64,000 nucleotides of DNA from Bacteroidales bacterium (GCA_003141715.1 PLNF01000048.1:1486-65485), one strand, 5' to 3'. Positions 15,483-45,500 are shown, counted from the stretch's first letter. Made by a program: numbers and translations. The notes: generated by a model from the letters alone, not told the origin.

Positions 15483-15711
15483 ATGGTCCTTAATACCACT
15501 GGAAAAAAGCAACAATGTACCCTATTTATACCTCAGAATATTAGATAACTCTTTGAAATTCAACGGAAGTTACTTTTTGTATCGAAAATAATTATAGGTT
15601 TTGAAAACTTTAAATTGTTTACTTCTTTTCATTGTCAAATATCAACCAAAATTGCAGATATTTGATATTGATTAGAACTTTTAATTCATTTACTAATAAC
15701 ACATAAATTTT

Positions 15712-18144: not shown

Positions 18145-18431
18145 CTGATTTATTGAGAAAGAGATCCCTCGCTGACGCTCGGGATGACATATCTGCTTGA
18201 GGGCATAAGGGAAAAAGTGAGGAATCTCCAGTTCTCCAAACGACCTCCCCTTATTGGCTGATCAACCTCAAAGGATGCAGCGTATGACTTTACACTATTC
18301 ATTCGGCCCCGCATATAGGGATCAACAGAAATGGTACATTGTTTAAATAATTCCTGCAAAATATTTCCGGTTTTAGATGTAACCATTTGTACCTTTACGA
18401 GTAATCAATATAGGAACTAAAAAATCAAACA

Positions 18432-29614: not shown

Positions 29615-31069
29615 ATGTTATTACAGGTAAAAAAAAGAACATTAATTGCTGCCGGAGTTGTTTTAGTTTTTGCATTTATTCTGTTTTGGTGGTTATTGAA
29701 AGGTCAGCCTTTAGATCTTAGTGAAAGGATTCCGGGAATGGATGACCGTCCCAAAATGGAAGCAAAGTCAGATACAATTATCATCGGTCAGTTTTTTGAT
29801 ACTCTTTCTGAAATGGATGCAATGGTCGCAGGTGACTGGCCAAGGTTCAGAGGAGCTGACCTGGATAATATTAGTAAGGATACAACCCCTCTTGCAGAAT
29901 CGTGGGATACTTCAGGACCAGCCATTATCTGGAGAACCACACTGGGTGAAGGATATGCAGGTCCGGCTGTGCATAATGGACGGGTTTACCTTCTTGATTA
30001 TAACGAAAGAAAGAAAGCTGATGCTCTCAGATGTTTTTCCCTTTCATCAGGAAAAGAGTTATGGAGGCGTTGGTATTATGTTGATCTGAAAAGGAATCAT
30101 GGATATTCCAGAACTATTCCTGCAGTAACTGATAAATATCTTGTTACCATTGGCCCTCGATCGCATGTTATGTGTGTTGATCCGCTTACAGGTAAAATGT
30201 TATGGTCTATTGATCTTGAAAAAGAGTTTGGAATTCCTGGAACAGAAAAGGGAAGAATCACACCTGATTTTTATACTGGTCAATGTCCATTGATCGATAA
30301 TGATGTAGCTGTACTTGCCCCGGGAGGAAAAGCACTGATGATAGGATTAGATTGTGCATCAGGTAAAATAATCTGGCAGACACCTAATATTGACTCCATC
30401 CGGATGTCACACAGTTCGATAATGCCGATGATAATTCACGGGAAAAGAATGTATGTTTATAATGGCATTGGCGGAGTTTGTGGTGTTTCTGCTGAAAAGA
30501 CGGATATAGGAAAATTATTGTGGACCACAACTAAGTGGAGTCCGGCAACAACAGCTGCTTCTCCCCTGTTTCTTGGAAATAATGAAATAGCGGTTTTTGG
30601 AAGTTATGGTGCAGGTGGTGCCCGGATTGTAATAAATACCACCGGATCGGGATATTCAGCAACAGTAAAGGAACAACATAAAGCTACGAATGGGCTGGCA
30701 AGTGATCAGCAAACACCCATAATCGCAGGAACTTATATATGGAGCGTTTTACCTGAGAATGCCGGTACATTGAAAAAGCAATTGGTTTGTTATAAAAAAT
30801 CGGATCTATTGACAGCTGTATGGTCAAGTGGTAAAGAAAACAGATTTGGACGCGGACTTGGTCCGTATATTGTCAGCGGAAATAAATTATATCTTCTCGA
30901 TGATGATGGGAAACTTTACTTTTATAAAATTCAGGATAACAAAGTCATATTAATTGCAAGCCATAAGGTTATCAAAGGAATTGAGGCCTGGGGACCAATG
31001 GCAATTGCAGGAAAGTACCTCATTATGAGGGATGCAAGAAATTTACTTTGTCTTAATATTGGTAAATGA
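29615..31069 (+). CDS. Membrane-anchored PQQ-like (PQQ_2/BamB-fold) beta-propeller repeat protein, paralog 1
   Basis: 484 aa. N-terminal TM RTLIAAGVVLVFAFILFWWLL, WPRFRGADLDN entry motif, and repeated ...G-x-x-Y-x-x-D...G-K-x-L-W blades. Confidence 0.7.
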   Translation: MLLQVKKRTLIAAGVVLVFAFILFWWLLKGQPLDLSERIPGMDDRPKMEAKSDTIIIGQFFDTLSEMDAMVAGDWPRFRGADLDNISKDTTPLAESWDTSGPAIIWRTTLGEGYAGPAVHNGRVYLLDYNERKKADALRCFSLSSGKELWRRWYYVDLKRNHGYSRTIPAVTDKYLVTIGPRSHVMCVDPLTGKMLWSIDLEKEFGIPGTEKGRITPDFYTGQCPLIDNDVAVLAPGGKALMIGLDCASGKIIWQTPNIDSIRMSHSSIMPMIIHGKRMYVYNGIGGVCGVSAEKTDIGKLLWTTTKWSPATTAASPLFLGNNEIAVFGSYGAGGARIVINTTGSGYSATVKEQHKATNGLASDQQTPIIAGTYIWSVLPENAGTLKKQLVCYKKSDLLTAVWSSGKENRFGRGLGPYIVSGNKLYLLDDDGKLYFYKIQDNKVILIASHKVIKGIEAWGPMAIAGKYLIMRDARNLLCLNIGK

Positions 31070-31076
31070 ACAGAAG

Positions 31077-31997
31077 ATGAAAAAGAAAGTAGTAACTATT
31101 TTAGCAGTATTAATCATACTCGTCTTTATCGGGTACATAATCTTTGATTCTGTTAAACCTGCGGTTTCAGTAAAAAGTGAAACCAAAAATTCACAAATTA
31201 AGGAAATACCAGATGCCTGGAAGATTTCAAATGAGCTCAAGGTGAATGAAGGTTCCCTTAAGGCAGTAACTGTTACTACCGCAGGAAAAATATATCTCGG
31301 TGGTGATTCTTTTGTATCATGTTATGATAAAGATCTGAAACTCATCTGGAATGTGAAAACTCCTTCGCCTGTGACAGCTCTTTCGAACTATGGAGATACA
31401 GTTTTTGCATCAACAATAGAACAGATACTTGTAATGAATTCTGCTGGTAAGATATTGAGCGAATGGGGGCCATTTGAGGATAGCTGCATTATTACTTCTG
31501 TGAGTTCAAACAGAGAATTTATTGCCTTTGCCGATGCAGGAAATAAAATGGTTTTCATTCTTGACAAAAGTGGTGAGGTTAAAAAAATGATTGGCCAGAA
31601 TGACGGACAATTTGTCATCCCAAGTCCCTATTTTGAAGTAGCCCTCGATAATGAGAATAACCTGTTTGTAGCAAATACTGGACACCATCGGATTGAAACC
31701 CGTACAATTGATGGGGTTTTAAAAAGCTATTTCGGAGAGGCCGGAACAGATCCCGACCGATTCTGCGGTTGTTGTGCTCCTCCTCATTTCATACTCATTC
31801 CTGGGGGATTTGTAACTGCTGAAAAAGGAATTAACAGGATTAAGATCCTCAACAAAAAGGGAGAATTTGTTGAATTTGTCAATTCAAAAAATGACTTTAT
31901 TAAATCGGTTCCTCTGGATCTGGCTTCCGCAGACGGGAAAACAATTTATGGGGCTTATCCGGCGGACTCTAAGCTTTATGTATTTAACCGTAAATAA
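31077..31997 (+). CDS. Membrane-anchored NHL-repeat / 6-bladed beta-propeller protein
   Basis: ATG 31077 gives MKKKVVTILAVLIILVFIGYIIF (TM anchor). NLFVANTGHHRIETRTIDG is an NHL-type blade. A distinctive FCGCCAPPHF motif is present. Confidence 0.6.
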   Translation: MKKKVVTILAVLIILVFIGYIIFDSVKPAVSVKSETKNSQIKEIPDAWKISNELKVNEGSLKAVTVTTAGKIYLGGDSFVSCYDKDLKLIWNVKTPSPVTALSNYGDTVFASTIEQILVMNSAGKILSEWGPFEDSCIITSVSSNREFIAFADAGNKMVFILDKSGEVKKMIGQNDGQFVIPSPYFEVALDNENNLFVANTGHHRIETRTIDGVLKSYFGEAGTDPDRFCGCCAPPHFILIPGGFVTAEKGINRIKILNKKGEFVEFVNSKNDFIKSVPLDLASADGKTIYGAYPADSKLYVFNRK

Positions 31998-32140: not shown

Positions 32141-32305
32141 ATGACCAGAAATGAATTATTAAAAAAGCTTGGAAGATATCTTCTCCTGATGTTAATAGCT
32201 GTAATAGTCATTGCACTGGGAAAAAAGGTCGTGAGCGGGAATGATTGTTCAACATGTCCTGGCAAGGGGATTTGTAACGGTAAAACCGACTGTAATAAAT
32301 ATTAA
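32141..32305 (+). CDS. Unlisted 54-codon ORF: small membrane-anchored Cys-rich peptide
   Basis: My own translation is MTRNELLKKLGRYLLLMLIAVIVIALGKKVVSGNDCSTCPGKGICNGKTDCNKY, followed by a stop. It has one TM plus a C-x2-C-x5-C-x5-C tail. It ends 11 nt before the Tat-ferredoxin ATG. It falls below the 60-aa cutoff of the ORF track. Confidence 0.45.
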   Translation: MTRNELLKKLGRYLLLMLIAVIVIALGKKVVSGNDCSTCPGKGICNGKTDCNKY

Positions 32306-32316
32306 TTGCAGTAAGC

Positions 32317-32880
32317 ATGAAGGATGCTAAGAATAAATATCAGTCAAGGAGGGATTTTGTAAAAACTGCAGGTAAGCTGATTGTTACAGTACCACTGGTT
32401 ATTATACCTGCTTTTCTTATAAAAAAGATTTCAGCAGCAGGATATGTCTGGCAGATAGATCCTTTCAAATGCACACAGTGCGGACAATGCAAGACTAACT
32501 GTGTACTTACACCTTCTGCATCAAAATGTGTACATGCTTTCCGGATGTGTGGCTATTGTGATCTTTGTGGAGGCTATCTCCGTCAGGGAGTAAAAACGAT
32601 CAGCACCGGAGCGGAAAACCAGTTATGTCCAACCGGAGCAATAACTAGAAAATTTGTTGAAGAGCCTTATTTTGAATATACAATAAATGAAGAAATATGT
32701 GATGGATGTGCAAAATGTGTAAAGGGATGCGGTGATTTTGGAAACGGGTCACTTTATATGCAGATCAGGCATGACCGGTGTGTAAACTGCAATGAATGCT
32801 CAATTGCACGTACTTGCCCGTCGAATGCAATTTCTCGAATTCCTGTAAACATTGCTTACTTACCGAAAGACAAAAGATAA
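32317..32880 (+). CDS. Tat-signal poly-[4Fe-4S] ferredoxin (NapG/MauM/NosG-like)
   Basis: SRRDFVKTAG is a twin-arginine motif followed by a hydrophobic stretch. Cluster motifs: CTQCGQCKTNC, CGYCDLCGG...CPTGAI, CDGCAKCVKGC, CVNCNECSIARTCP. Confidence 0.75.
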   Translation: MKDAKNKYQSRRDFVKTAGKLIVTVPLVIIPAFLIKKISAAGYVWQIDPFKCTQCGQCKTNCVLTPSASKCVHAFRMCGYCDLCGGYLRQGVKTISTGAENQLCPTGAITRKFVEEPYFEYTINEEICDGCAKCVKGCGDFGNGSLYMQIRHDRCVNCNECSIARTCPSNAISRIPVNIAYLPKDKR

Positions 32881-32945
32881 AAGTAAAAATGGAAAAATGG
32901 AATGAAAAAACGGAGAACGTTAAACACTGAACCCTAAACTTATAG

Positions 32946-34211
32946 ATGAAAAAGGCTCTGCCATATATTGTTTTTATACTGCTATTATGCTGGCATGTGG
33001 TTCTTTTTGCCCAGGACAGGTTTCCGAGACCTGAATTTGAATCGGGGCATGTTTATCCGACAAACCAGATGCCAAAACCCAGGGTTCCGGGCTGGGAGTA
33101 TTTTGATGTTCTGATATTGACCGGAGCTTTGATAATGACAACCTGGCTGGCATTGAAAAAGCGTTCACGACAGGGTTTAATCTGGATGTCGGTCTTTTCT
33201 CTGGCTTATTTCGGTTTTTACAGAGAGGGTTGTATCTGTGCAGTCGGATCAGTTCAGAATGTATCGCTGGCTTTATTTAATACAGGATATTCAATTCCTC
33301 TTTCAGCACTTCTGTTCTTTATTATTCCTTTATTGTTTGCACTTGCCTATGGACGTGTATTTTGTTCTGGAGTCTGTCCCCTCGGAGCCATTCAGGAACT
33401 AACTGGCCTCAAACCGGTAAAGCTTCCAAAAGCTGTTGAATTAATTCTGGCCTTTGTACCTTTTATTTATCTTGGGATCGCTATCTTATTCGCTTCAACT
33501 AATAGCCAGTTTCTTATATGCAGGTATGATCCTTTCGTCGGAATATTCAGGCTGGATGCTCCTTACACAATGATAATCTTTGGAGCATTGTTACTTTTAG
33601 CAGGGATATTTGTTAACAGGCCTTACTGCAGGTTTCTCTGCCCCTATGGTGTCCTGCTTAATATCTTTTCAAGGTTTGCAGGAAAGCATCTGACAATAAC
33701 ACCTGCTGAATGTACGAATTGCAGACTTTGCGAAGATGTTTGCCCTTATGATGCGATAATTCCTTCAGATACAGATCAAAAGAGGGAAGAGCCGCAAAAG
33801 TCAAGGAAGCGTTTTATTATTTATTTCCTTTTTGTTCCCCTGTTTGCAGCTACAGGAGCATTTTTACTTCACAACCTCGCTCCCGCCTTGTCAGGGGCAA
33901 ATAATACAGTAAGACTTGCAAGAGAGATCAGAATCGAGAAGAAAACTGGTATTGAATCAGAGCTAAAAGATGTTGTCGCGTTCAAAGAATCAGGTAAGAC
34001 AGAATCAGAATTATATACAGAAGAAGAGTTAATCATCGGGCGATTCAGAAGAGGTTCTCCATGGGCTGGCGCGTTTTTGGGAATATCATTCGGAATAGGA
34101 ATGATAACACTCACAATAAGAAGTAAGAGAAGTGAATATAAACCCCATCAGGGGAAGTGTTATAGTTGTGGAAGATGTTTTAAATATTGTCCAATTAAAG
34201 TGAAAACATAA
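32946..34211 (+). CDS. NapH/MauN/NosH-type membrane polyferredoxin
   Basis: 421 aa and multi-TM. Two CX3CP motifs (FCSGVCPLG, YCRFLCPYG). Two 4Fe-4S motifs (CTNCRLCEDVCPYDAI, CYSCGRCFKYCP). Confidence 0.75.
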   Translation: MKKALPYIVFILLLCWHVVLFAQDRFPRPEFESGHVYPTNQMPKPRVPGWEYFDVLILTGALIMTTWLALKKRSRQGLIWMSVFSLAYFGFYREGCICAVGSVQNVSLALFNTGYSIPLSALLFFIIPLLFALAYGRVFCSGVCPLGAIQELTGLKPVKLPKAVELILAFVPFIYLGIAILFASTNSQFLICRYDPFVGIFRLDAPYTMIIFGALLLLAGIFVNRPYCRFLCPYGVLLNIFSRFAGKHLTITPAECTNCRLCEDVCPYDAIIPSDTDQKREEPQKSRKRFIIYFLFVPLFAATGAFLLHNLAPALSGANNTVRLAREIRIEKKTGIESELKDVVAFKESGKTESELYTEEELIIGRFRRGSPWAGAFLGISFGIGMITLTIRSKRSEYKPHQGKCYSCGRCFKYCPIKVKT

Positions 34212-35906
34212 ATGAAGTTTATTTTTACTGAAAAAGATATAAGTATTCTTAAAGTTATTAGTCAGATCGCAGGAGGATTTGCCCTTATTGTGGCAATGAC
34301 TATGATCTTCAGCCTGGTACAGTTAAAAACGGTTAATCCTTTAGACAATCCGGTACTGTTGTCGGTAAAAGAACAATACGACAAGGATCCATCGAATGCT
34401 GCTAAGGCTGAGCAGGTAAGGGCAATGGATCTGATGGCAAGAAAAGCTTATTTCAGTTCAAGATGGCAGGTGGAAACAGGTTCATATCTCCTGATTGCCG
34501 GGGTCATTATCTTCATTATTTGCCAGCGGATTATTTCAGAGAATGAAAAACTTGTACTTGTACTCGCTGATGCAAAAACTGATTCATCCATGCAACGGGG
34601 AAAAAACAGAAAATACCTGATTTCAGCAGTCATAATTATTTTTATTACAGCAATTATTGCATCTTTTTTTCTGCGTGCCGATCTCCCGGATATCTCAGGA
34701 AAAGCTCCGGGGTCCTCGAAGAAAGAGGAACGCAGCAATGAAAAGGCACCCAAACCCGATAAAACAAACTGGCCATTCTTTCGTGGTCAGGATAGTCGTG
34801 GAATTGCAGGAGGTACTGGATATCCGACCGAATGGGATGCTACAGCTGGAAAGAATATCGGTTGGAAAATTGAGGTACCTGAAAATGGAAAGAGCTCTCC
34901 TGTTATTTGGGAAGATAAAATTTTTATTACCGGAGCTCAGGAAAAGATTTGCGAGGTTTATTGCATTGATAAAAAAACAGGAAAAATACTATGGACCGGG
35001 TCTGCTTCTGATATCCCGGGCGAACCGGCAGTATTGCCTAAAATGGCTCAGGAAGCAGGGCTGGCTGTATCGACAGTAGCCACAAATGGTAAAGTGGTAT
35101 GTGCTGTTTTCTCAAATGGCAACCTTGTCTGCTTCGATATGGATGGGAAACAGAAATGGGCAAAAAACATAGGCGTCCCTGAAAACAGTTATGGTTATGC
35201 ATCTTCCCTGATGATTTATAAAGACATTCTGCTCGTTCAATTCGACAGTAATGTAAAGATATCGCTTATTGGATTTGATCTGGTAACGGGTGATCAGAAG
35301 TGGGAAACCCTGCGACATGGACATGCTGTATGGTCATCACCGGTTATGGCTTATTTCGCCGGAAAATCAGAACTGATAATAAACGGAAATCCATATGTGA
35401 GTGGTTATGATCCTTTAACAGGAAATGAACTCTGGGAAGTAGAATGCATGAGCGGAGATGTTGCTCCATCGGTCGCAGTAAACAGCACAATGACCTATGC
35501 CGTAACTGATTATGCAAAACTTGTAGCAATTAAACCTGGAAATGGAGTATCAATAGTTTGGCAAGACAACACCTACACTCCTGACGTTTCAAGCCCTGTA
35601 GCTACTGATCAGTTTTTGTTTGTATCAACAGGGAACGGTGATGTTGCATGTTATAATGCAGCAAAAGGAGATACATTATGGACACATTATTTTCAGAATC
35701 CTTTTTATGCTTCACCTATAATATCAGATGATATGGTTTATCTTCTTGACAGATCAGGCGTGATGCACATTGTAAAGGCAGGATCATCGTTCAGTTTGAT
35801 CGCTGAATCGCCGCTTGGAGAAGGTGCCGACTGTTCACCCGCATTTTCTGACAAGAAAATTTATATACGGGGAACGAAAAACCTTTATTGCATATCGAAG
35901 AAATGA
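34212..35906 (+). CDS. Polytopic-anchored PQQ-like beta-propeller protein, paralog 2
   Basis: 564 aa. About three N-terminal TM segments, then WPFFRGQDSRGIAGG and the propeller blades. The ATG directly abuts the upstream TAA. Confidence 0.7.
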   Translation: MKFIFTEKDISILKVISQIAGGFALIVAMTMIFSLVQLKTVNPLDNPVLLSVKEQYDKDPSNAAKAEQVRAMDLMARKAYFSSRWQVETGSYLLIAGVIIFIICQRIISENEKLVLVLADAKTDSSMQRGKNRKYLISAVIIIFITAIIASFFLRADLPDISGKAPGSSKKEERSNEKAPKPDKTNWPFFRGQDSRGIAGGTGYPTEWDATAGKNIGWKIEVPENGKSSPVIWEDKIFITGAQEKICEVYCIDKKTGKILWTGSASDIPGEPAVLPKMAQEAGLAVSTVATNGKVVCAVFSNGNLVCFDMDGKQKWAKNIGVPENSYGYASSLMIYKDILLVQFDSNVKISLIGFDLVTGDQKWETLRHGHAVWSSPVMAYFAGKSELIINGNPYVSGYDPLTGNELWEVECMSGDVAPSVAVNSTMTYAVTDYAKLVAIKPGNGVSIVWQDNTYTPDVSSPVATDQFLFVSTGNGDVACYNAAKGDTLWTHYFQNPFYASPIISDDMVYLLDRSGVMHIVKAGSSFSLIAESPLGEGADCSPAFSDKKIYIRGTKNLYCISKK

Positions 35907-38311
35907 ATACAGATAAGTCAAACATATTGACCAGTGACTGCGGATGTGAGCAGACCTCCTCAAAGGATATTACTTCTGTTGTGGATGAAGTTGTTAAATT
36001 GACGGGCAGAGAACCGGAAAAGGTTATTTTAATACTCCAGGAAGTACAGAAAAGGCTTAACTGGCTTCCATCAGAAGCGCTTAAACATATTTGTAAAGTA
36101 ACTGATATCACTCCTGGCCAGATCTCCGGCGTTTCAACATTTTATTCTCAGTTCAGACATCTTCCTGTTGGCAAACATACGATAAAAATTTGCGCTGGAA
36201 CAGCATGCCATGTCAAGGGAAGCCCGTTGATATCTGATGCATTTAAAAGGATTCTCAAAATTGATAATGACAGGAATGCTTCACCCGATAACCTGTTTTC
36301 AATTGAAGAAGTTGCCTGTCTTGGATGTTGCACGCTGGCTCCTGTAGTTCAGATTGACGGGAAAACCTATGGTCATGTCAGACCAATCCAGGTAGAAAAA
36401 ATAATTCATGATTTCCTGAGTTCAGGCAATCAGAGCACCAATACAACTGAATCAGACGGGAATGAAGATATTGATGCCGAAATCAGGATTGGGATCGGCT
36501 CATGCTGTGTTGCCGGGGGCAGTAAGGAGATTCTCTCTGAAATAATTGATGTCAAGGAAAGGTATAATCTCAATATCAGGTTGAAGCCTGTTGGTTGTGT
36601 GGGAGTATGTAACCAGACGCCATTGATGGAAATAGTTACAAAAGAGAACATTCATTCCAGATATACTAAAGTCAGCAAGTTTCAGGTTGAAGAGATTCTT
36701 CTTAAACATATTACGCCCAGGAGTTTAAACAAAAGAATCAAAGGCAACATTAATGATCTGGTCGATACGTTTCTTTCTGAAGATAAGCTTTCAGGACAGG
36801 TCAATATTCCGGTTGAATTAAGAGAGAAATACCTTAATAATTTTCTGAATCATCAGGTACATATTGCCACAAAGAACAGTGGTATTCTTTCTCCTGAATC
36901 ATTTGAAGAGTATTGTTTGTCCGGTGGTTTCGAAGCACTTAATAAATGTATTAAAGAGTTGGATCAGGAATCAATTATCAGAATTATAACTGATAGCGGA
37001 TTAAGAGGTCGCGGAGGAGCAGGATTTTCTACCGGTAAAAAATGGGGAATTTCACTTTTTGCAACCGGGAATCCGAAGTATGTTATCTGCAACGGGGATG
37101 AAGGAGACCCAGGCGCTTTCATGGACAGGATGCTTCTTGAATCTTTTCCTTTCAGGGTAATTGAGGGGATGATCATTGCAGGCTATTCAACCAGCGCCAA
37201 TGAAGGGATTTTCTATACCAGGGCAGAATACCCGCTTGCAGTAACAAGGATCAGGATGGCCCTTAAATTGTGCTATGATAATGGAATACTTGGCCACAAT
37301 ATTTTTGGCACTGCTTTTTCTTTTAATATTAAGATTTTTGAAGGAGCCGGAGCCTTCGTATGCGGTGAAGAAACAGCATTGATTTCATCACTTGAAGGTA
37401 AGCGGGGAACTCCTCATCTGAGGCCTCCCTACCCTGCTGTCAGAGGTTTCAGGGGCTTGCCTACGCTGGTTAATAACGTTGAGACTCTTTCAGTAGTTCC
37501 ATGGATAATTATAAACGGAGCTGAAGCGTTCATATCTGTAGGAACTGAAAAGAGCAAAGGAACGAAAGTATTTGCACTTGCAGGAAAAATTTCCAAAGGT
37601 GGCCTCATTGAAGTTCCAATGGGAATAACAATACGCGAAATAGTTGAGAAAATTGGTGATGGTGTAGCTGATGGTAATACTTTCAAAGCTGTTCAGATCG
37701 GAGGTCCTTCAGGTGGTTGTATTCCTGCAAGTAAAGCTGACACTACTATTGATTATGAAAAACTTACAGAGCTGGGCGCTATGATGGGTTCTGGTGGTAT
37801 GGTTGTCCTGGATAACACAGATTGTATGGTTGACATGGCAAAATACTTTCTGACATTCACTCACAAACAATCATGCGGGAAATGTACATTTTGCAGAATC
37901 GGCACGAAACAGATGCTGAATATTATTACCGGATTGACTGAAGGTAAAGGAACTATTGAAGATATAATCGAGCTTGAAAATCTATGCAAATCGGTTATAG
38001 ATGGCAGTTTATGCGGACTTGGAAAGACTTCTCCTAATCCTGTTCTCACGGGCTTGAGATATTTCAGGGAGGAATATGAAGAACATACACGAGGAATATG
38101 CAGAGCTAACAAATGCAGGGATCTCATAAGATATAGTGTAAATGACAATTGTACAGGATGCACAAAATGTTCACAGGAGTGTCCTGTAAAAGCAATTCCT
38201 TTTAAACCTTATGAAAAACATGAGATAAACCAGTTAATATGCACGAAATGCGATAATTGCAGAAGTATTTGTCCTGAAAAAGCAATTGAAATTATTAATA
38301 TAAATGGTTAA
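35903..38311 (+). CDS. Fused NuoE-like [2Fe-2S] / NuoF-like NADH-FMN / 2x[4Fe-4S] flavoprotein (HydBC/HndAC-type diaphorase)
   Basis: Thioredoxin-like 2Fe-2S motifs: CAGTACHVKG...CLGCCTLAP and SCCVAGG...GCVGVCNQ. NuoF motifs: GRGGAGFSTGKKW, NGDEGDPGAF, VCGEETALISSLEG, SCGKCTFCR...LCGLGKT. C-terminal CTGCTKCSQECP and CTKCDNCRSICP. The ATG overlaps the upstream stop (ATGA at 35903..35906). Confidence 0.8.
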   Translation: MNTDKSNILTSDCGCEQTSSKDITSVVDEVVKLTGREPEKVILILQEVQKRLNWLPSEALKHICKVTDITPGQISGVSTFYSQFRHLPVGKHTIKICAGTACHVKGSPLISDAFKRILKIDNDRNASPDNLFSIEEVACLGCCTLAPVVQIDGKTYGHVRPIQVEKIIHDFLSSGNQSTNTTESDGNEDIDAEIRIGIGSCCVAGGSKEILSEIIDVKERYNLNIRLKPVGCVGVCNQTPLMEIVTKENIHSRYTKVSKFQVEEILLKHITPRSLNKRIKGNINDLVDTFLSEDKLSGQVNIPVELREKYLNNFLNHQVHIATKNSGILSPESFEEYCLSGGFEALNKCIKELDQESIIRIITDSGLRGRGGAGFSTGKKWGISLFATGNPKYVICNGDEGDPGAFMDRMLLESFPFRVIEGMIIAGYSTSANEGIFYTRAEYPLAVTRIRMALKLCYDNGILGHNIFGTAFSFNIKIFEGAGAFVCGEETALISSLEGKRGTPHLRPPYPAVRGFRGLPTLVNNVETLSVVPWIIINGAEAFISVGTEKSKGTKVFALAGKISKGGLIEVPMGITIREIVEKIGDGVADGNTFKAVQIGGPSGGCIPASKADTTIDYEKLTELGAMMGSGGMVVLDNTDCMVDMAKYFLTFTHKQSCGKCTFCRIGTKQMLNIITGLTEGKGTIEDIIELENLCKSVIDGSLCGLGKTSPNPVLTGLRYFREEYEEHTRGICRANKCRDLIRYSVNDNCTGCTKCSQECPVKAIPFKPYEKHEINQLICTKCDNCRSICPEKAIEIINING

Positions 38312-39353
38312 GCTGAAAATAAATAATGCCGATTATGAAGTTCAGGACGGGTTGACTATTCTGGATATTGCCAGGAGTGCCGGAATTTATATCCCTACCC
38401 TGTGTCATAATGAAAAACTCCCTCATTATTCTTCATGTATGGTTTGTATGGTAAAGGATCAGAGAACCGGAAACTTTTTACCTTCATGTTCAGCTTTGCT
38501 TCAGGATGGAATGGACATTGATTGTTCATCCGAAGAGGTTATCTCCCTAAGACGGAAAGCTATCGAACTTCTTCTGTCAGAACATCGGGCTGAATGTGAA
38601 GCTCCATGCAAAGTAGTATGCCCCGGCGGATACAATATTCCTCTAATGAACAGGTTATTAGGCGCTAAGAATTTTGAAGGTGCACTTAAACTTTCCAGTA
38701 CGCAGCTTCAATCTTCCGGATTATTGTGTACAGATTGTCCTGGATACTGCGAGAATGCATGCCGGCGAAAAAAAGTTGACATTCCTGTTTCGATAAGAAA
38801 TATGCAAATATTTATTTCACAACAAATTAAGCAGGAAAACATTGCTGTCAATCAACACAATATCGAAAAATCATCTAAACGGTTTACATCTCATATCGGC
38901 CGACTTGAGGAAGGCGAATTAAAGGAGTGGTTAAAAGAATGTTCTGATGAAGTAAAACGGATCAGGGAAATATCCGATCCAGAATCCGCTGCCAGGGAGT
39001 CTGAGAGTTGTATGCACTGCGATTGTCGTGCCGCTGATAATTGCAGACTCAGGGATATAGCTGATGATTTTTCTATTAAAGATCCCAGAGGCAAGCTTGT
39101 AAACTCGCCGATACAGAAGAAAATTAATATTAATACCGGATTGATATTTGAGAACGCAAAATGTATTAAATGCGGACTCTGCGTAAGGCTTTGTGAAGAT
39201 TCAAAAGATGAACCTTCTCTCTGTTTTATTAACAGAGGATTTGTAAGCATTATCTCTGAACCTCTTACTGAGGATTTTAATAATATCCTGAAATCAAAAA
39301 CCAAAGAGGTTATAGCAATATGTCCGACAGGTGCATTAAGTATGTTTAAGTAA
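38304..39353 (+). CDS. [2Fe-2S] (NuoG/HydA N-terminal type) plus multi-[4Fe-4S] protein with no catalytic domain
   Basis: MVKLKINNADYEVQDGLTILD...PTLCH...SSCMVCMV is a fer2-type N-terminus. CEAPCKVVCPGGYNIP and CPGYCENACRR resemble the GltD N-terminal cluster region. Also CMHCDCRAADNCR and CIKCGLCVRLCE...ICPTGAL. Overlaps the upstream gene by 8 nt. Confidence 0.7.
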   Translation: MVKLKINNADYEVQDGLTILDIARSAGIYIPTLCHNEKLPHYSSCMVCMVKDQRTGNFLPSCSALLQDGMDIDCSSEEVISLRRKAIELLLSEHRAECEAPCKVVCPGGYNIPLMNRLLGAKNFEGALKLSSTQLQSSGLLCTDCPGYCENACRRKKVDIPVSIRNMQIFISQQIKQENIAVNQHNIEKSSKRFTSHIGRLEEGELKEWLKECSDEVKRIREISDPESAARESESCMHCDCRAADNCRLRDIADDFSIKDPRGKLVNSPIQKKININTGLIFENAKCIKCGLCVRLCEDSKDEPSLCFINRGFVSIISEPLTEDFNNILKSKTKEVIAICPTGALSMFK

Positions 39354-39385: not shown

Positions 39386-39463
39386 CCCCCTTCCCAACCT
39401 TCCCCCACGGGGGAAGGCGTATCAATACATTTCCCCCTTGGGGGAAACTAGAAAGGGGGTAAT
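39386..39463. repeat. About 75-nt G/C-tract nested-hairpin intergenic element, copy A
   Basis: cccccttcccaaCCTTCCCCcacGGGGAAGGcgtatcaatacaTTTCCCCCttgGGGGAAActagaaagggggtaat. Near-identical to the copy at 56940..57013. Confidence 0.85.
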
Positions 39464-39491: not shown

Positions 39492-40607
39492 ATGAAATTC
39501 ATTTATATAGGAATCCTGTATTTGTTCATCTTCATATCTGTTTCCGGTCAGACTAATGAAACAGAATGGCCGCTATTCAGAGGCAAAGCTGACCTGGCCG
39601 GAAGAATTGAAACTGAACTACCTGTATCACCCAAACTATTATGGAGCCTAAAAACAGGCGGAACAACAAAATCATCACCGGTTATAAGTGAAGGAACTGT
39701 TTATTTTGGTAATGACAAAGGGTCCCTGATTGCAGTGAGTACCGATGGTAAAATCAAGTGGAAATATGAGTCAGGAAGTTCAATTGATGCCGCTCCTATG
39801 GTGTATGGTAATAAAGTCATTTTTGGGACAAACGAAGGCATTCTAAAAGCGGTTGATAAGATTTCTGGTAAATTTATATGGTCGTATACCACTGATAACC
39901 AGATTGCAGGCTCAGCAAATGTGTGGGTTGCCGGAAATAAAGCAGGAATCGTTGCTGGAAGCTATGATTATTTCCTGCACTGTGTTGATCCTGAAACAGG
40001 TAAAGTTATGTGGAAGATCGAGACTGAAAATTATATCAACGGGACACCTGCAATATTAAACGGTAAAATTGTATTCGGTGGATGTGATGGTATGATCAGG
40101 GTTGTGGATCCGCTGACAGGAAAACAAAAAGATACTATTAATATCGGAGTCTATATTGCTTCTTCTCCTGCCCTTACGCTTGATATGGCATATTTCGGGG
40201 ATTACGATGGCACAAAATACTGTGTAAATATTAACACAAAGAAAATTGTATGGAAGATTCCGGGAAGTGAGGAATCGGGCGCAATATTGGCTATTCCTGC
40301 AATCAGAAATAATTCAGTTGTAATTGGAAGTGAAGATAAATATCTTTATTGTTACAACTCTTCCGACGGAAAACTGTTATGGAAATACCGTACGAACGGT
40401 AGAATAATCGGCTCTGCGGTTTTAACATCAACAAAAGTTCTCTTTACAGGTATGGATGGTTATATTTATATTCTGGGATTGGCAGATGGGAAAAAACTGT
40501 GGAGTTTCAATGCAGGAACTCCTGTGAGCAGCTCTCCGGCAGTGATTAAAGGAAAGTTTTTCATTCTGACTGAAGATGGAAGGTTACTTTCATTCGGTGA
40601 AAAGTAA
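39492..40607 (+). CDS. Secreted PQQ-like beta-propeller protein, paralog 3
   Basis: 371 aa. Signal peptide MKFIYIGILYLFIFISVSGQ, WPLFRGKADLAGR entry motif, and repeated G-x-x-Y-x-G...DG-K-x-x-W blades. Confidence 0.75.
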   Translation: MKFIYIGILYLFIFISVSGQTNETEWPLFRGKADLAGRIETELPVSPKLLWSLKTGGTTKSSPVISEGTVYFGNDKGSLIAVSTDGKIKWKYESGSSIDAAPMVYGNKVIFGTNEGILKAVDKISGKFIWSYTTDNQIAGSANVWVAGNKAGIVAGSYDYFLHCVDPETGKVMWKIETENYINGTPAILNGKIVFGGCDGMIRVVDPLTGKQKDTINIGVYIASSPALTLDMAYFGDYDGTKYCVNINTKKIVWKIPGSEESGAILAIPAIRNNSVVIGSEDKYLYCYNSSDGKLLWKYRTNGRIIGSAVLTSTKVLFTGMDGYIYILGLADGKKLWSFNAGTPVSSSPAVIKGKFFILTEDGRLLSFGEK

Positions 40608-40611
40608 TGTT

Positions 40612-41898
40612 ATGAAAATTGTTTATCTGATAACTGGTTCAGGAGGTTCATTTTATTGCGGCAATTGTTACCGGGATATGATTTACCTCAGGGCTATGCG
40701 TAAAGTTCCTGGAATAACGGCTTCAGCCATACCGTTATATCTTCCTCCCGATGGAACAAATATTGAAACCGGTCTTGACAAAAATGTCTTCTTCGGTGCA
40801 ATTTCTATGTTTCTGAGGGAGAAAGTACCTTTTCTCAGGAATATGCCTGTATTCATGGACAAGCTGTTTGATTCTTCACCGATGCTTAAGATGGCTGCTC
40901 GCAGGGCTGGTACAACCAGAACAGTGGGACTTGAAGAGATGACGCTGAATATGATAAAGGGAGAAAATGCCTTTCCTGAAAAGGAGCTCCAACGACTGGT
41001 GGATTACCTGACAAGAGACGGGAAACCAGATATTATTCACCTTTCAAATGCTCTTATAATCGGACTTGCCCGTCAGATCAAGAAAAAACTGGATGTTAAG
41101 ATTGTTTGCTCTCTTCTGAATGAAGATGACTGGATAGATGAGATGGCAGAGCCTTATCAGTCAGGAGCCTGGAAACTGATATCAAAAGAAGCATCCAATG
41201 TTGATGTCTTTTTAACTCCCAGCAATTACTATAAAGAGTTGTTCATTTCGAAAACGGGTATATCAGGTGACAATTTTTATGTTATCCCTCTTGGAATTGA
41301 TCCCGCTGAATTATTAAAAATTGAAAAAAGAGATAACTACCCTTCAATCGGATATTTCTGCCGGATAAATTCTCAAAACGGATTCGACAAGCTGGTAGAT
41401 GCTTTTATTGAACTGAAATCAGGCAACAACCTGCCAGGACTAACTCTTCATATATCGGGCGGTTATACAGGTGATGATAAGCCTTTTATAGCAGATCAGA
41501 TCAGGAAAATAAAGGCTGCAGGTCTGAAAAGCTTTGTCAGAATTTATCCGGAATTTCATGGGAACAGCAAACAGGAGTTTTTCAGTAATATAGATGTTAT
41601 GAGTGTACCTGTCAGAAAACATGATGGTTACGGATTATATATACTTGAAGCCAATGCTGCCGGGGTACCAGTAGTTCAGCCTGCAACCGGAGCATTTCCG
41701 GAAATCATTGAAAGAACCATGGGAGGAATGACTTATTCACCTGACAATGTTGGGGAGTTGTCAGCGAACCTTCTGAAATTATTAAAGGATAATGACTTAC
41801 GCTCCCGCCTTGGGAAACTGGGAAAAGAAAAGGTCTTAACTGAACTTTCACTTGAAAAAATGTCCGAAGGTTTATCTAAAGTTTATAATACCTTATAA
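40612..41898 (+). CDS. GT4-type (GT-B fold) glycosyltransferase
   Basis: ATG 40612 gives MKIVYLITGSGGSFYCGNCYRD. The C-terminal half has GYGLYILEANAAGVPVVQPATGAFPEII, a GT4 E-x7-E-like region. Confidence 0.7.
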   Translation: MKIVYLITGSGGSFYCGNCYRDMIYLRAMRKVPGITASAIPLYLPPDGTNIETGLDKNVFFGAISMFLREKVPFLRNMPVFMDKLFDSSPMLKMAARRAGTTRTVGLEEMTLNMIKGENAFPEKELQRLVDYLTRDGKPDIIHLSNALIIGLARQIKKKLDVKIVCSLLNEDDWIDEMAEPYQSGAWKLISKEASNVDVFLTPSNYYKELFISKTGISGDNFYVIPLGIDPAELLKIEKRDNYPSIGYFCRINSQNGFDKLVDAFIELKSGNNLPGLTLHISGGYTGDDKPFIADQIRKIKAAGLKSFVRIYPEFHGNSKQEFFSNIDVMSVPVRKHDGYGLYILEANAAGVPVVQPATGAFPEIIERTMGGMTYSPDNVGELSANLLKLLKDNDLRSRLGKLGKEKVLTELSLEKMSEGLSKVYNTL

Positions 41899-41899
41899 T

Positions 41900-42565
41900 A
41901 TGTTAAATATCAATAATATATCAAAGTCATTCATTCAACGTGGTTTGGTCCTTGATAATCTATGCCTTGAAGTGAATGAAGGTGAGACTCTTGCCATAAT
42001 GGGACCATCCGGTTCAGGGAAGACTACACTTATGAATATTATTGGTCTGTTAGATAAGCCTGACAAGGGAGAGATTATTTTCAGAGGGGCTCCAATAGCA
42101 AACTTTACAGAGGACGAGTCTGCAGATTACAGAAACCTGAATATCGGTTTTGTATTCCAGGAGCATCTGCTGCTACCGTATCTTACTGTTTCAGAGAATA
42201 TACAGCTTCCTTTACTTGCATCAAAACATTCACAGGAAGAACTTTCTGTTAAACAGCAATATTTAAAAGGATTAATGGAAAAGGCCGGCATTTCTGATCT
42301 TAAAGACAAGTATCCTTTTCGAATCTCCTGTGGAGAAGCTCAACGGGCTGCTTTGGTAAGAGCCCTGGCGAATAACCCGTCAATTCTTCTTGCAGACGAA
42401 CCAACCGGATCTCTTGATTCAAAAAATGCAGAAAATATGGGTGAACTTCTTCTTGAGATGAACAGAGAATTTGGGATAACAATCATTCTGGCAACCCATT
42501 CGTTTGACCTTGCAAATAAGATGTCAAAGATATTACGGCTTGAGGAAGGCAAATTAATAGTCTGA
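41900..42565 (+). CDS. ABC transporter ATP-binding protein (MacB/LolD type)
   Basis: Walker A GPSGSGKTTL, signature variant ISCGEAQRAAL, Walker B LLADEPTGSLD. The ATG lies 1 nt after the GT4 stop. Confidence 0.85.
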   Translation: MLNINNISKSFIQRGLVLDNLCLEVNEGETLAIMGPSGSGKTTLMNIIGLLDKPDKGEIIFRGAPIANFTEDESADYRNLNIGFVFQEHLLLPYLTVSENIQLPLLASKHSQEELSVKQQYLKGLMEKAGISDLKDKYPFRISCGEAQRAALVRALANNPSILLADEPTGSLDSKNAENMGELLLEMNREFGITIILATHSFDLANKMSKILRLEEGKLIV

Positions 42566-42590: not shown

Positions 42591-45500
42591 ATGCCTGGCA
42601 CATTCCAGATAATAATCAAATCAATAAAATTCTATAAAAAGCCGGTCCTGTACCAGGTTCTTATAATCATTCTGCTGTGCGCCGTCATAACCGGATCATT
42701 ACTGACAGGGAGATCTGTTAAGGAGAGTCTAAAAAAATCAGCCTCAGAACGCCTTGGAAATACAGGCATTCTCATTAGTTCAGGAATCAGATACTTTGAT
42801 TCTGAACTTGTTCAAAGAATGAAAGACAGCTCCGGTATATTATGCACCGGGATACTTGAAATGAACGGTTATTGTCAGAGTCTGAATTCGCAAAAAGGGG
42901 CGTTCAATACGCATATTTATGGTGTCAATAAAGACTTTTTTATTTTTCACGGACATGATTCAATGGCTATCAAACCAGGAGAAGTTGCTGTTAATAAACG
43001 GCTTGCAGATTATCTTGGAATTAAACCGGGTGACGACCTGATAATACGATTCAAGGTCATAAGCGACATACCTTCAGATGCACCATTTGCACCTGGCGGA
43101 GGTGCCGGAAAGTCAATTGTGATGAAAATAGGAAGTATTCTTGAACCAACAAAAACCGGAAACTTCTCCTTGTCAATCAGTCAGATAACACCTATGAATA
43201 TCTTCATGAACCTGTCAAATATAGAAGATGATCAAGGCAACCATTTTAAACTAAACAGGTTGCTTATTAAAAGAGACAATATCAATTCCCTAAAACAAAT
43301 ATCTGGTGCCTTAAAGCATTATTTGAAACCCTCCGATATTGGCCTGAGGTTAAGAACAGTGAAGAAGACAGGAGAATATGAACTCATTTCTGACAGGATT
43401 TTTATAGATGAATCAATTTTAAAAGAGATTGGCAACTTGTTGCCCAATTCTTATCCTGTTATAACGTACCTTGGTAACAGGTTCGAGGCGGATACCAAAT
43501 CGACTCCCTACTCATTTGTTTCAGCATTGCCTTCTTCATTATATCATGATATTGATGCCGGCAATGGAATGATAATAAACAAATGGATGGCAAATGATCT
43601 TTTAGTGCGGGAAGGGGACACTGTTAAAATGTATTGGTATACACCTGATTCACTAAATAAACTTATTGAAAAAAGCAGCGGTTTTATTGTCAATCATATT
43701 GTAGATATGAAGGGTATCTGGTCAGATTCTCTTCTTATGCCTGATTTTCCCGGAATCTCAGGAAAAGAATCATGCTCTGACTGGGATGCCGGTGTTCCCA
43801 TAAAAATGCATGAAATTCGCGCTAAAGATGAGGATTACTGGAATAGATACAGAGGTACACCCAAGGCATTTATCAATTATGATAAGGGTAAGGAGCTGTG
43901 GGGAAATAATTTTGGCCCCGCGACTGCTATCCGTTATCCTGCAGGTGTAACAGAAAAAGAGATAGAAGATAAACTTGCAGGATCGCTTGATCCTCTAAAA
44001 ATGGGGTTCAGTATAAAAGATCTGTCGGATGAATCATTTAAAGCTGCAAATGAGAGTGTTGATTTCGGTACTTTGTTCCTGAGTCTGGGGTTTTTCCTCA
44101 TTCTGGCTACACTGGTTTTGTTATCGTTCGCGGCCTCTTCATATTTTGATTCTAAAAGAAAGCATATAATAACATTATTTGCCCTGGGATTTAAAAACAG
44201 GTGGATTGCACAACTACTATTTCTCGAATCAGGATTGATAAGTATTGCCGGATGCTCAATTGGAGTATTTGCCGGTTATCTGGTTAATATTATTATAACC
44301 AGGGCTTTGAATACTGTTTGGAATGGTGCAGTACAGACCGATACACTTGATGCGTATTTTAATCTTTTGCCAATAATTTCAGGATTTCTATTGACATTCC
44401 TGACCATTATGATATTTATGCTGGTTAAGGTTAAACGTTTCCTGAATGGGTTGAATAAGAGGGAAAAGGAGATTTACAATACTCCTTCAATCCTTAATAA
44501 TCTGTTTTTATTACTTACATCAGCTATTGTAACAATTTCATTATTTGTACTTTCTATATTATTCAGAGACAAGCAACTCACTTTCTCGTTTGCCTCAGGT
44601 ATTGTGCTTTTGCTTACATTGATCTTATTATGGAGGCAATATTATATAGGCAGATTTATTAATAATACAGGAAGAATCAAAAATAGAAAACAGTTATCGC
44701 ATCTCTATTACTCTTTTAATCCGTCTAATGCTGTAACACCAATTCTTTTTATAGCTGCAGGAATTTTTACTGTCTTTATCACCGGTGCAAACAGGATGAC
44801 TTTTAATGAAAAACAGGTTAAACGTTCAGGTGGTACCGGCGGTTATTTGCTATGGTGTGAAAACACTATCCCTTTAAAAGAAGATCTGAATACAGTATCC
44901 GGAAGGAAAACAACCGGACTTGACAACGATCAGCTTTCGGAGATGAGTTTTGTCCAGATGAAAAGGTATTCAGGCAATGACGCCAGCTGTCTGAATCTTA
45001 ACCATATTACATCTCCTCCTCTTCTGGGAATTGATCCTGACGATTTTATAGCGAAAAAGTCTTTTGCTTTTTCAAAAGTACTCATAGCTAATAGCATTGA
45101 GAATCCATGGCAGTTTCTGAATCTTCCTTCAGAAAACAATACAATTTATGGCATTGCTGATCAGACTGTTCTCGATTGGGGACTGAAACTAAAACCGGGA
45201 GATACTTTAGTCCTGAGAGCTGAGAATGGACGACCTCTGAATATTATTATTGCTGCAGGATTACAATCATCTGTTTTTCAGGGTAATGTACTCATTGGAA
45301 AGGAAAATTTCACAAAGTATTATCCTTCTGTTTCCGGAAGTCAGGTATTGCTTGTAGATGGTAAGAGTTCGTTAACTGATTTATATAAAAGTACTTTGAA
45401 CGAAAGGCTGGAAAATTATGGTGTAAATATTGAAAAAACATCTGATCGCCTTGCAACATTTTATAAAGTTACAAATACATATCTCTCAGTATTTGGAGTT

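Follow-up and report, generated by a model that had tools for sequence, protein, structure and literature searches.

The 64,000-nt stretch analysed here, from a Bacteroidales bacterium (GCA_003141715.1, PLNF01000048.1:1486-65485; referred to below as the window), carries at about 29.6-48.6 kb a gene cluster in which a membrane-bound polyferredoxin resembling NapH, an exported ferredoxin and several beta-propeller proteins are encoded together with a cytoplasmic NADH-binding iron-sulfur (Fe-S) module. An initial annotation had described six tightly coupled genes at positions 32141-39353 and proposed that they connect NADH in the cytoplasm with the periplasm. We assigned domains to the window proteins by Pfam and NCBIfam profile searches, in which NCBIfam scores were set against the curated cut-offs. 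All six open reading frames (ORFs) were found on the plus strand, an ORF read-out bearing out both the gene order and the coordinates first reported, and the Pfam and NCBIfam matches agreed with the domains that had been assigned (Tat ferredoxin, NapH-like protein, three-helix propeller, NuoE/NuoF and Fe-S protein). The cluster extends beyond these six genes. Its central part, which includes two propeller genes upstream of the six, consists of the following:

29615..31069, plus strand, propA484: transmembrane (TM) anchor, then an eight-bladed PQQ_2-type propeller (Pfam PQQ_2, 6.6e-21)
31077..31997, plus strand, NHL321: TM anchor, then an NHL-like propeller (weak NHL and ScyF matches)
32141..32305, plus strand, mini54: 54 aa, one hydrophobic helix and a Cys-rich tail, a small membrane-anchored protein
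32317..32880, plus strand, TatFd: 187 aa, periplasmic ferredoxin with a twin-arginine translocation (Tat) signal (Fer4 families)
32946..34211, plus strand, NapH-like polyferredoxin: 421 aa (two Fer4_5 domains and ferredoxin motifs)
34212..35906, plus strand, TMprop: 564 aa, three TM helices and a PQQ_2 propeller (PQQ_2, 1.5e-27)
35903..38311, plus strand, BfuC-BfuB fusion ('NuoE/NuoF', called NuoEF below): 802 aa from ATG
38304..39353, plus strand, BfuA-like Fe-S protein (FeS349): 349 aa (Fer2_4, Fer4_20 and Fer4_Nqo3)

NHL321 has an alternative start at 31032, and a TTG at 35888 is likewise open as a start for NuoEF. The three tight junctions reported for the cluster read as described: TAAATG at 34209-34214, where the stop of the NapH-like gene and the start of the TMprop gene are adjacent and in frame; an ATGA overlap at 35903-35906 between TMprop and NuoEF; and the overlap ATGGTTAA at 38304-38311 between NuoEF and FeS349. 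The NuoF motifs GRGGAGFSTGKKW and SCGKCTFCR are intact in the 802-aa product. Domain scans detected no genes for a hydrogenase, formate dehydrogenase (FDH), molybdoenzyme such as NapA, NosZ or cytochrome within the 64-kb window, so that the absence of a hydrogenase or FDH catalytic partner near NuoEF holds for its whole length. No hydrogenase, FDH, NapA or NosZ partner was found within ±10 kb of 80 related loci either, and no molybdopterin, cytochrome c or mau genes were detected in the window or in these loci.

The NapH-like protein contains two Fer4_5 domains (Pfam, 1.2e-16). Its best family matches were the NapH/MauN and NosR models, well below their cut-offs. The NapH/MauN model TIGR02163 gave 67.4 bits (1.3e-18; cut-off 213) and the model for the quinol dehydrogenase NapH, NF007013, gave 57.8 bits (cut-off 234), and the NapH-family match was limited to residues 108-277. 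The protein shares with NapH a polytopic membrane architecture, two CX3CP motifs (C140/C144 and C228/C232) and two ferredoxin-type [4Fe-4S] motifs. The latter form a split 2x[4Fe-4S] ferredoxin domain (C256-C266 and C405-C415) with two helices between the halves. Across 40 homologues (37-47% identity), fifteen of its Cys varied hardly or not at all.

Using helices from AlphaFold2 (AF2) models, hydropathy and the positive-inside rule, we predicted a cleaved signal peptide and about seven TM helices, with the CX3CP motifs and both ferredoxin halves probably located on the cytoplasmic side. C96 and C98 (GCxC) and C192 would be positioned at the periplasmic ends of helices, a placement that suggests a site on the outer face. 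This predicted topology agrees with the published picture of NapH and NapG, which in strain MLMS-1 are fused as a Sec/Tat polyferredoxin, with the NapH clusters cytoplasmic and NapG periplasmic (PMC5449189). Structure searches identified no solved structural relative of the NapH-like part.

A second NapH-like polytopic protein (648 aa; Fer4_5; TIGR02163, 2e-6) is encoded at 48804-50750 on the plus strand. By eye, a CuA-like motif, C-x3-C-G-x2-H (CHVWCGPMH), can be seen in the roughly 130-aa periplasmic domain at its N terminus; no cupredoxin domain was matched by Pfam in this protein.

In TMprop, three hydrophobic helices and a conserved juxtamembrane helix (R70-Q86) lead into an eight-bladed BamB-type propeller that is predicted to face the periplasm. 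In a Foldseek search with the modelled propeller, BamB was closest (TM-score 0.75-0.84), followed by YxaL, tetrathionate hydrolase and pyrroloquinoline quinone (PQQ) dehydrogenases. Scores against the curated models for BamB (TIGR03300, 77 versus a cut-off of 285) and PQQ dehydrogenase (TIGR03075, 59.5 versus 480) were low, and TMprop has no lipobox but three TM helices instead. On the basis of the model, it is probably a cofactor-less BamB-like module on the periplasmic face of a membrane protein. Neither the three-TM domain of TMprop nor the mini-ORF received Pfam support.

In an exhaustive search, 398 clusters of 50%-identity representatives matched the NapH-like protein at E<1e-30. Nine of the top 150 representatives are fusions of about 1000 aa, composed of a NapH-like part and a C-terminal part that corresponds to the three TM helices and PQQ_2 propeller of TMprop, and when the longer representatives were searched for fusions of NapH to Bfu proteins, the one kind that turned up was NapH joined to the TM part of the propeller protein. 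The fusions occur in at least nine distant lineages and are at most 50% identical to each other, and the in-frame TAA-ATG junction in the window is consistent with them. Because the two proteins form a single polypeptide in at least nine lineages, they very probably work together. For the same reason the absence of the propeller from otherwise conserved operons, an observation that would have spoken against the proposal of the initial annotation, was not what we found. For three fusion genes the neighbourhood was available, on contigs with 58-71% GC; each lies directly after a Tat-type ferredoxin gene, and in two of the three it is followed by a NuoEF gene of 806-808 aa and an Fe-S/FAD gene of 514-534 aa. 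When the NapH-like protein and TMprop were joined head to tail and modelled with AF2 (pLDDT 85.7, pTM 0.57), the model was confident per residue, not in domain packing.

The exported ferredoxin, TatFd, begins with a twin-arginine motif (SRRDFVK, with ISA/AG) and contains four Cys clusters, its 17 conserved Cys being enough for four [4Fe-4S] clusters. In a comparison of 77 orthologs, conservation of R11, R12, F14 and the Cys was at least 90%. Among solved structures, its best relative is the polyferredoxin WorS (9mqx_E), and the NapG model TIGR00397 gave 16.4 bits (cut-off 178.85). By analogy, TatFd may be regarded as a counterpart of NapG/NosG rather than as a demonstrated member of that family. 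Just upstream, the small ORF mini54 is conserved in 63 of 78 loci as a hydrophobic helix with four Cys (C36, C39, C45 and C51), and its counterpart on locus L002 has been called as a gene; the mini-ORF is a real gene. A Tat-like start, RR[DE]F[LI] (RRDFL-type), is intact in Marinilabiliales orthologs, appears as an RK variant in some others and is degenerate in the clade of the window (TRNELL). The spacing of the four Cys differs between clades (window 32141-32305; orthologs L031-L084).

To define the distribution of the cluster, we scanned one genome per species, labelling the loci L001 onwards, and worked out synteny on the best 80. At least 596 loci encode relatives of the NapH-like protein, and the best 80 of these are all from Bacteroidota. 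Their hosts include Rikenellaceae-like metagenome-assembled genomes (MAGs), Labilibaculum, Ancylomarina and Gaoshiqia as well as the cultured Marinifilum fragile, M. flexuosum, Draconibacterium orientale and D. sediminis. BLAST of the window proteins onto the related loci gave the order [extra propellers]-propA-NHL-(mini)-TatFd-NapH-TMprop-NuoEF-FeS-propS-GT4-ABC-FtsX, which is kept down to 46% NapH identity and is shared by about 50 species-level Bacteroidota genomes. The cluster order was also found in a Saprospiraceae MAG, and the same gene block occurs on contigs with an identical NuoEF protein. Intergenic gaps are small across loci, with a median of 2 nt between TMprop and NuoEF.

The core recurs on loci L085-L092, which have 57-75% GC compared with 38-44% in the Bacteroidota loci; the system therefore spans very different lineages. 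Judged from these sequences, the six-gene arrangement is far beyond chance. The first six genes to be described were thus found together in other genomes, the search suggested for them returning about 50 species-level genomes and the high-GC contigs, but the conserved unit is larger than they are and has propA484 and NHL321 in its core. The invariant core comprises propA484, NHL321, the small Cys-rich protein, TatFd, the NapH-like protein and TMprop, and would be periplasm-facing. propA484 precedes the cluster in every Bacteroidota locus as well as in two high-GC ones, L089 and L092, and NHL321 is syntenic in 63 loci. In public annotations, parts of the cluster appear only as 'PQQ-binding-like beta-propeller', 'BamB', 'polyferredoxin' and 'NosR regulator'. 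In L092, a radical-SAM gene and a 301-aa Fer4 gene are located divergently upstream.

The two periplasmic propellers of the core have distinctive conserved positions. In propA484, KRNHGxSRT, QCP and MSHS were invariant in 40 sequences and are kept at 38% identity on a 71% GC contig; this conservation is much above what a scaffold needs. Its AF2 model (pLDDT 87.4) is a generic propeller, with BamB and tetrathionate hydrolase closest in Foldseek. The profile match that would link it to tetrathionate hydrolase (E 1.5e-5) covered only generic blade motifs and was not used. A reading of the propellers as PQQ enzymes was also rejected, their scores being far below the cut-off and their folds closest to the cofactor-less BamB. 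NHL321 carries an invariant vicinal Cys-Cys pair, GCCxP (C232/C233), which is kept in L089 (71% GC).

The cytoplasmic module was originally described as an orphan diaphorase. Our comparison instead identified it as the core of a Bfu-type bifurcase that has its own BfuA partner, derived from NfnA/StnC. NuoEF has the Pfam layout 2Fe-2S_thioredx, Complex1_51K, NADH_4Fe-4S and 2x[4Fe-4S]. From the N to the C terminus, it carries a NuoE/HydC-like [2Fe-2S] cluster, a thioredoxin-like [2Fe-2S] cluster, a flavin mononucleotide (FMN)/NADH site, an N3-type [4Fe-4S] cluster and a C-terminal 2x[4Fe-4S] domain, which is predicted to interact with ferredoxin. Its N-terminal 190 residues form a NuoE/HydC-like BfuC domain (matches to NuoE, HoxE and FDH-gamma), and residues 194-798 give end-to-end alignments with NfnB (9n5u_B, E 5e-199) and StnB (8oh5_B). 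Among 53 orthologs, the BfuC ligands C97, C102, C139 and C143 were 100% conserved, while the thioredoxin-like site (C201/202/232/236) and the BfuB ligands (C658/661/664/704, H728/C733/C738, C750-760 and C780-790) were at least 98% conserved. The complex I NuoF equivalog TIGR01959 scored 441.9 (cut-off 558.65), and no other nuo genes were found next to NuoEF in the domain scans of the window.

The Bfu family is defined by an invariant BfuBC core (PMC9304861, PMC11829005). NuoEF contains the BfuB elements of this core (the FMN/NADH site, the B1 [4Fe-4S] cluster, B2, the thioredoxin-like B5 and the C-terminal B3/B4 2x[4Fe-4S]) and the BfuC element (the C1 [2Fe-2S] cluster), here fused to BfuB. 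Because these features and their ligands are conserved, NuoEF and FeS349 are assigned, from their sequences, to a Bfu-family (HydABC/NfnABC-type) module, and its chemistry probably involves ferredoxin besides NADH.

FeS349 contains a [2Fe-2S] cluster, two GltD-type [4Fe-4S] clusters, a CxxCxC..C cluster and one ferredoxin-type cluster, and among solved structures StnC and NfnA are its best relatives. Its residues 1-173 correspond to StnC 4-175 (the [2Fe-2S] and GltD-type clusters) and residues 224-345 to StnC 550-671, so that a 50-residue linker takes the place of the stretch of about 375 aa that holds the FAD and NADP(H) domains in StnC; the protein also lacks the C-terminal FDH-like domain. 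The protein had been thought to stop before any catalytic domain. The catalytic part is indeed missing, but through removal of an internal segment, and the C-terminal Fe-S domain is kept. The lengths of FeS orthologs are bimodal, either 349-367 aa, as in the clade of the window, or 509-524 aa. The longer form keeps an FAD Rossmann fold (GAGPAGL) and has no NADPH Rossmann fold. An identity as an Nfn/Stn transhydrogenase was rejected since the NADP(H) domain is missing.

Because the FAD and NADP(H) domains have been excised from FeS349, the usual third-substrate site is gone, and its Fe-S chain would now end at the clusters once directed towards FAD. With sites for NADH and ferredoxin alone, a Bfu core needs a third partner. 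The sole candidates encoded with it appear to be the cytoplasmic clusters of the NapH-like protein. Separate hydABC sets are present in Marinifilaceae (PMC9765461); these were rejected as an explanation because the cluster carries its own BfuA-like gene.

In L081, at 15408-18260, the Fe-S/FAD ORF runs in frame, stop to stop, into a secreted propeller (951 aa), with a hydrophobic segment in between. This is either a real fusion from cytoplasm through membrane to periplasm or the result of a missed start codon.

Where a Bacteroidota locus extended far enough downstream, NuoEF was found in about 90% of cases. In L023, L024, L028 and L029, the TM propeller is followed directly by the secreted propeller and the Bfu genes are absent. 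They are also absent from the high-GC loci L089 and L092, in which propA-NHL-(small ORF)-TatFd-NapH-propeller is kept. The clean absence of the Bfu module from loci that keep the NapH Cys shows that it is optional and pluggable, one of several possible electron inputs or outputs. The part of the original proposal that makes the NADH module a component of the conduit can thus apply to most loci, but not to all of them.

Downstream of the Fe-S protein gene and up to the end of the cluster, the following genes were found:

39492..40607, plus strand, propS371: signal peptide, secreted ACSF4/PQQ_2-type propeller (Beta-prop_ACSF4, 1.5e-57)
40576..41898, plus strand, GT4 glycosyltransferase, cytoplasmic (Glycos_transf_1, 9e-18)
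41852..42565, plus strand, LolD/MacB/YbbA-type ATP-binding cassette (ABC) ATPase (ABC_tran, 7.7e-32)
42591..45854, plus strand, double-FtsX permease (MacB-type, type VII): 1087 aa (FtsX, 2.4e-20; ADOP-like)
45862..47220, minus strand, propM452: anchored or secreted PQQ_2 propeller, convergent with the operon (PQQ_2, 6.4e-18)
47242..48639, minus strand, FG-GAP repeat protein, TM-anchored (FG-GAP_3, 1.1e-41)

Gene callers put the start of the ABC ATPase at about 41900, and its LolD match (5.6e-61) is under the cut-off. In Bacteroidota, and also in L086 and L089 among the high-GC loci, the FtsX permease accompanies the cluster. In the same two high-GC loci, the ABC/FtsX pair recurs with a secreted ACSF4-type propeller; propS371 thus travels with the pair across phyla, its homologues adjoining ABC-FtsX in both. 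The GT4 gene is conserved in the Bacteroidota version of the cluster. propM452 follows FtsX in L023, L028 and L029 (66-71% identity) and also in L001 and L002. The FG-GAP protein lies beside the cluster only on the near-identical contigs L001 and L002, and its membership of the system is uncertain. The GT4 protein has a conserved N-terminal motif, G-G-x-F-Y-C-x-N-C-x-R-D, in which C16 and C19 form a CxxC that is unusual for GT4. A pair of GC-rich hairpins resembling repetitive extragenic palindromic (REP) elements (CTTCCCCCACGGGGGAAG ... TTTCCCCC(TT/GT)GGGGGAAA) occurs twice in the window, at 39399-39447 and 56953-56998. The first copy falls within the 138 nt that separate the Fe-S protein gene from the propS371 gene, and its region folds at -46.6 kcal/mol (z -3.3); the pattern had 8 matches versus 0.15 expected.

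Elsewhere in the window, a glycyl-radical enzyme of the pyruvate formate-lyase type (789 aa) and a radical-SAM activase are encoded at 24358-27556 on the minus strand, beside asnB and divergent from the cluster; asnB is syntenic only in close Rikenellaceae-like relatives. At 7836-12486 (plus strand), a 694-aa caspase-domain (Peptidase_C14) protein is followed by an 837-aa FG-GAP/TIG protein with a C-terminal sorting domain of the type IX secretion system. An Alg9-like GT22 mannosyltransferase is split over two plus-strand ORFs, 1058-1882 and 1952-2494 (profile positions 2-267 and 303-378), which may reflect a frameshift or a pseudogene.

Taken as a whole, the cluster may be read as a system for envelope-spanning, cytochrome-free electron transfer from a cytoplasmic Bfu module through the NapH-like protein to the exported ferredoxin, and we consider this reading moderately probable. 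Its core would be a membrane polyferredoxin of the NapH/NosR superfamily together with a Tat-exported four-cluster ferredoxin in the role of NapG/NosG. The BamB-like propeller, anchored by three helices, would sit on the periplasmic face of the NapH-like protein and most likely serve as a docking platform for TatFd, propA484, NHL321 and the Cys4 protein. On the cytoplasmic side, the BfuC-BfuB fusion would bind NADH at FMN and ferredoxin through its C-terminal 2x[4Fe-4S] domain, and the freed end of the cluster chain in the BfuA-like subunit would exchange electrons with the cytoplasmic 2x[4Fe-4S] of the NapH-like protein. The short BfuA of WorABCSL, which leads to polyferredoxins, is a structural precedent for such a handover. 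Electrons would cross the membrane via one or more CX3CP-bound sites and the periplasmic-face Cys to the exported ferredoxin. The net effect would be that NADH, probably with ferredoxin in a con- or bifurcating manner, is coupled to a periplasmic redox reaction, which is most plausibly an electron sink of fermentative anaerobes. The sequences show the gene content, the conserved domains and ligands, the synteny, the NapH-propeller fusions and the loss of the FAD/NADPH domains from FeS349; we infer the contact between BfuA and NapH, the membrane topology, the direction of flow and the bifurcation. While fermenting, Labilibaculum species reduce Fe(III) and Mn(IV) (PMC9765461 section 12), which fits the role of an electron sink, as a circumstantial match.

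Several observations weigh against this reading. All 15 NapH Cys are kept in the six Bfu-free loci, so NapH does not depend on the Bfu genes. No fusion of NapH to BfuA or BfuB was found among the top 150 representatives. Both modelled propellers (TMprop and propA484) are BamB-like with no recognisable cofactor site, and no terminal enzyme or catalytic client was recognised in the cluster by Pfam, NCBIfam or Foldseek. The MacB-type ABC transporter and the GT4 glycosyltransferase are unexplained by a pure electron-transfer model. In addition, quinol oxidation, for which NapH has an established role, could supply the periplasmic ferredoxin without any cytoplasmic partner. The idea of a conduit from NADH to the periplasm, as first put forward, is partly supported.

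A more specific form of the electron-transfer reading, which we put forward tentatively as possible rather than probable, is that the cluster represents a membrane-integrated 'NapH-Bfu' class. Here the third-substrate site of the Bfu enzyme would be replaced by a transmembrane Fe-S wire made up of the NapH-like protein, the four-cluster ferredoxin in the periplasm and a propeller platform. Through it, NADH oxidation, bifurcated or confurcated with ferredoxin, would be linked directly to a periplasmic acceptor without quinones or cytochromes, and propA484 and NHL321 would form a cofactor-poor periplasmic reductase. Candidate substrates of such a reductase would be metal oxides, sulfur species and organic disulfides. 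If true, this would identify, for the first time, a cytoplasmic redox partner of the long-unexplained clusters that NapH/NosR-type proteins carry on their cytoplasmic side, extend the Bfu family to a periplasm-directed partner and alter models of the balance between NADH and ferredoxin in the abundant fermentative Bacteroidota of sediments, peat and digesters. The cluster offers a genetically tractable candidate for the feeder of NapH/NosR cytoplasmic Fe-S clusters, which matters for nitrate, N2O and organohalide respiration, and Draconibacterium orientale, Marinifilum fragile and Labilibaculum are cultured hosts in which it can be studied. It also places a large set of so far uncharacterised PQQ_2 and NHL propellers in a redox context.

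Three other explanations were weighed. The first, which we regard as unlikely, is that the NapH-like protein and TatFd form a quinol dehydrogenase, as NapGH and NosGH do, in which menaquinol is oxidised and electrons pass to the periplasm. The Bfu module would then be merely a co-transcribed soluble enzyme acting on NADH and ferredoxin, or would reduce the quinone pool via NapH; in that variant, the system would be an NADH/ferredoxin:menaquinone reductase analogous to the predicted Nuo-Bfu. NapH, MauN and NosR are the best family matches, NapGH has been described as a quinol dehydrogenase (PMC5449189; PMC9012536 section 21), and a quinone has been proposed as the third substrate of other Bfu enzymes (PMC9304861). 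The Bfu-free versions with intact NapH Cys are also consistent with this explanation. However, all NapH and NapG family scores are far under the cut-off, and the two cytoplasmic [4Fe-4S] clusters of the NapH-like protein would have no role in a pure path from quinol to periplasm. With the BfuA-like site lost, a stand-alone soluble enzyme would be left with two substrates. The Bfu genes are moreover placed inside the operon, between the TM and secreted propellers, with overlapping stop and start codons.

The second explanation is that the system serves maturation or maintenance, a role that we think quite unlikely. Low-potential electrons would be used to assemble a cofactor, metal site or thiol or to keep it reduced, with the MacB-type ABC transporter bringing in or removing a component. 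The vicinal Cys-Cys pair of NHL321, the propeller Cys and the Cys4 mini-protein are the candidate sites. NapH-like proteins are often accessory factors. The role would resemble that of NosR with NosDFY for NosZ, of CcoG for the cbb3 oxidase and of MauMN for methylamine dehydrogenase. Every periplasmic partner has conserved Cys, GCCxP is kept across phyla, the Cys4 mini-protein is of the Tat type and the ABC/FtsX pair travels across phyla with the secreted propeller. Against it, no catalytic client enzyme is recognisable in the cluster, the ABC transporter belongs to the MacB rather than the NosFY type, and a full Bfu module with about 12 clusters would be a heavy investment for such a purpose.

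Very unlikely, finally, is a reverse flow, in which a donor in the periplasm gives up electrons at the end formed by the propeller and the ferredoxin, these move inward via NapH, and the Bfu module uses them in a bifurcating reaction that yields NADH and reduced ferredoxin. Bfu enzymes can run in both directions (PMC9304861, PMC11829005), and a four-cluster periplasmic ferredoxin is usable either way. Against this, the host bacteria are organoheterotrophic fermenters, whose usual difficulty is to dispose of electrons (PMC9765461 section 12). Pfam, NCBIfam and Foldseek revealed no oxidase-type domain on the periplasmic side, and inward electron movement against the membrane potential costs energy.

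We compared the cluster with systems that share some of its parts. No description of this gene combination was found in the literature, in line with the initial annotation. Among membrane-bound types, the survey of Bfu enzymes recognises Mbh-Bfu and Nuo-Bfu alone, with 17 clades left unassigned (PMC9304861), and the host taxa of the present cluster are not listed in its supplement. Like Nfn-Bfu and Stn (9n5u, 8oh5, 9bov; PMC9304861, PMC11829005), the module here has a full-length BfuB with FMN, cluster and Zn ligands, a BfuC-type [2Fe-2S] domain and a BfuA with an NfnA/StnC-type N terminus, in which the [2Fe-2S] cluster directly precedes the GltD-type clusters, and with matching C-terminal clusters. 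It differs in that BfuC and BfuB are one polypeptide, that BfuA has no FAD, NADP(H) or C-terminal FDH-like domains and that the genes lie inside an operon of membrane and periplasmic proteins. With neither an FAD nor an NADP(H) domain in BfuA, NADP+ is excluded as the third substrate here.

A parallel for the electron path is WorABCSL, in which a Bfu core plugs into a polyferredoxin wire (9mqx; PMC12318220). In both systems BfuA is short, and in WorABCSL it links the BfuBC core to four-cluster polyferredoxins. WorS is cytoplasmic and ends at a tungsten enzyme, whereas the four-cluster ferredoxin here is exported and no catalytic metalloenzyme is recognisable; the polyferredoxin partner of BfuA would here be the cytoplasmic domain of a membrane protein.

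NapH-like proteins have been described as modular transmembrane electron-transfer devices, and NuoF-like genes occur beside MsrQ-like ones (Meheust et al. 2021, PMC8238504). The flavinylated NapH-like systems (NosR, PceC/RdhC) of that study follow the same concept of a modular membrane protein that conveys electrons from pools in the cytosol or membrane to extracytosolic redox partners. In the present cluster, however, no FMN-binding domain or ApbE is present (no Pfam match to FMN_bind or ApbE in any cluster protein) and it is an Fe-S protein that serves as carrier in the periplasm. In that study, the NuoF-like gene accompanies MsrQ-like proteins, which bind heme b, whereas here it accompanies a NapH-like protein. 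TMprop shares its eight-bladed propeller of about 350 aa with BamB, YxaL and tetrathionate hydrolase (cofactor-less PQQ_2). Unlike BamB, it is not a lipoprotein but is held by three inner-membrane helices or fused to NapH, and it is encoded with redox genes and not with the beta-barrel assembly machinery.

The NapGH and NosGH pairs of E. coli and Wolinella share several features with the membrane part. They too combine a Tat-exported ferredoxin with four [4Fe-4S] clusters and a polytopic membrane partner encoded by the adjacent gene, and this partner has two CX3CP motifs and two cytoplasmic [4Fe-4S] clusters. NapH has four TM helices, whereas the protein here has about seven, its second ferredoxin motif following two extra helices, and adds conserved Cys on the periplasmic face. 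NapA, NapB and NosZ are absent here, and the partners are instead BamB-like propellers and the Bfu module. The cluster falls outside NapH, NuoF, Nfn-Bfu, BamB and the flavinylated NapH-like systems as each of these is defined, and TatFd probably falls outside NapG. By analogy with the parts that it shares with them, the system would work like a NapGH/NosGH pair joined to a Bfu core.

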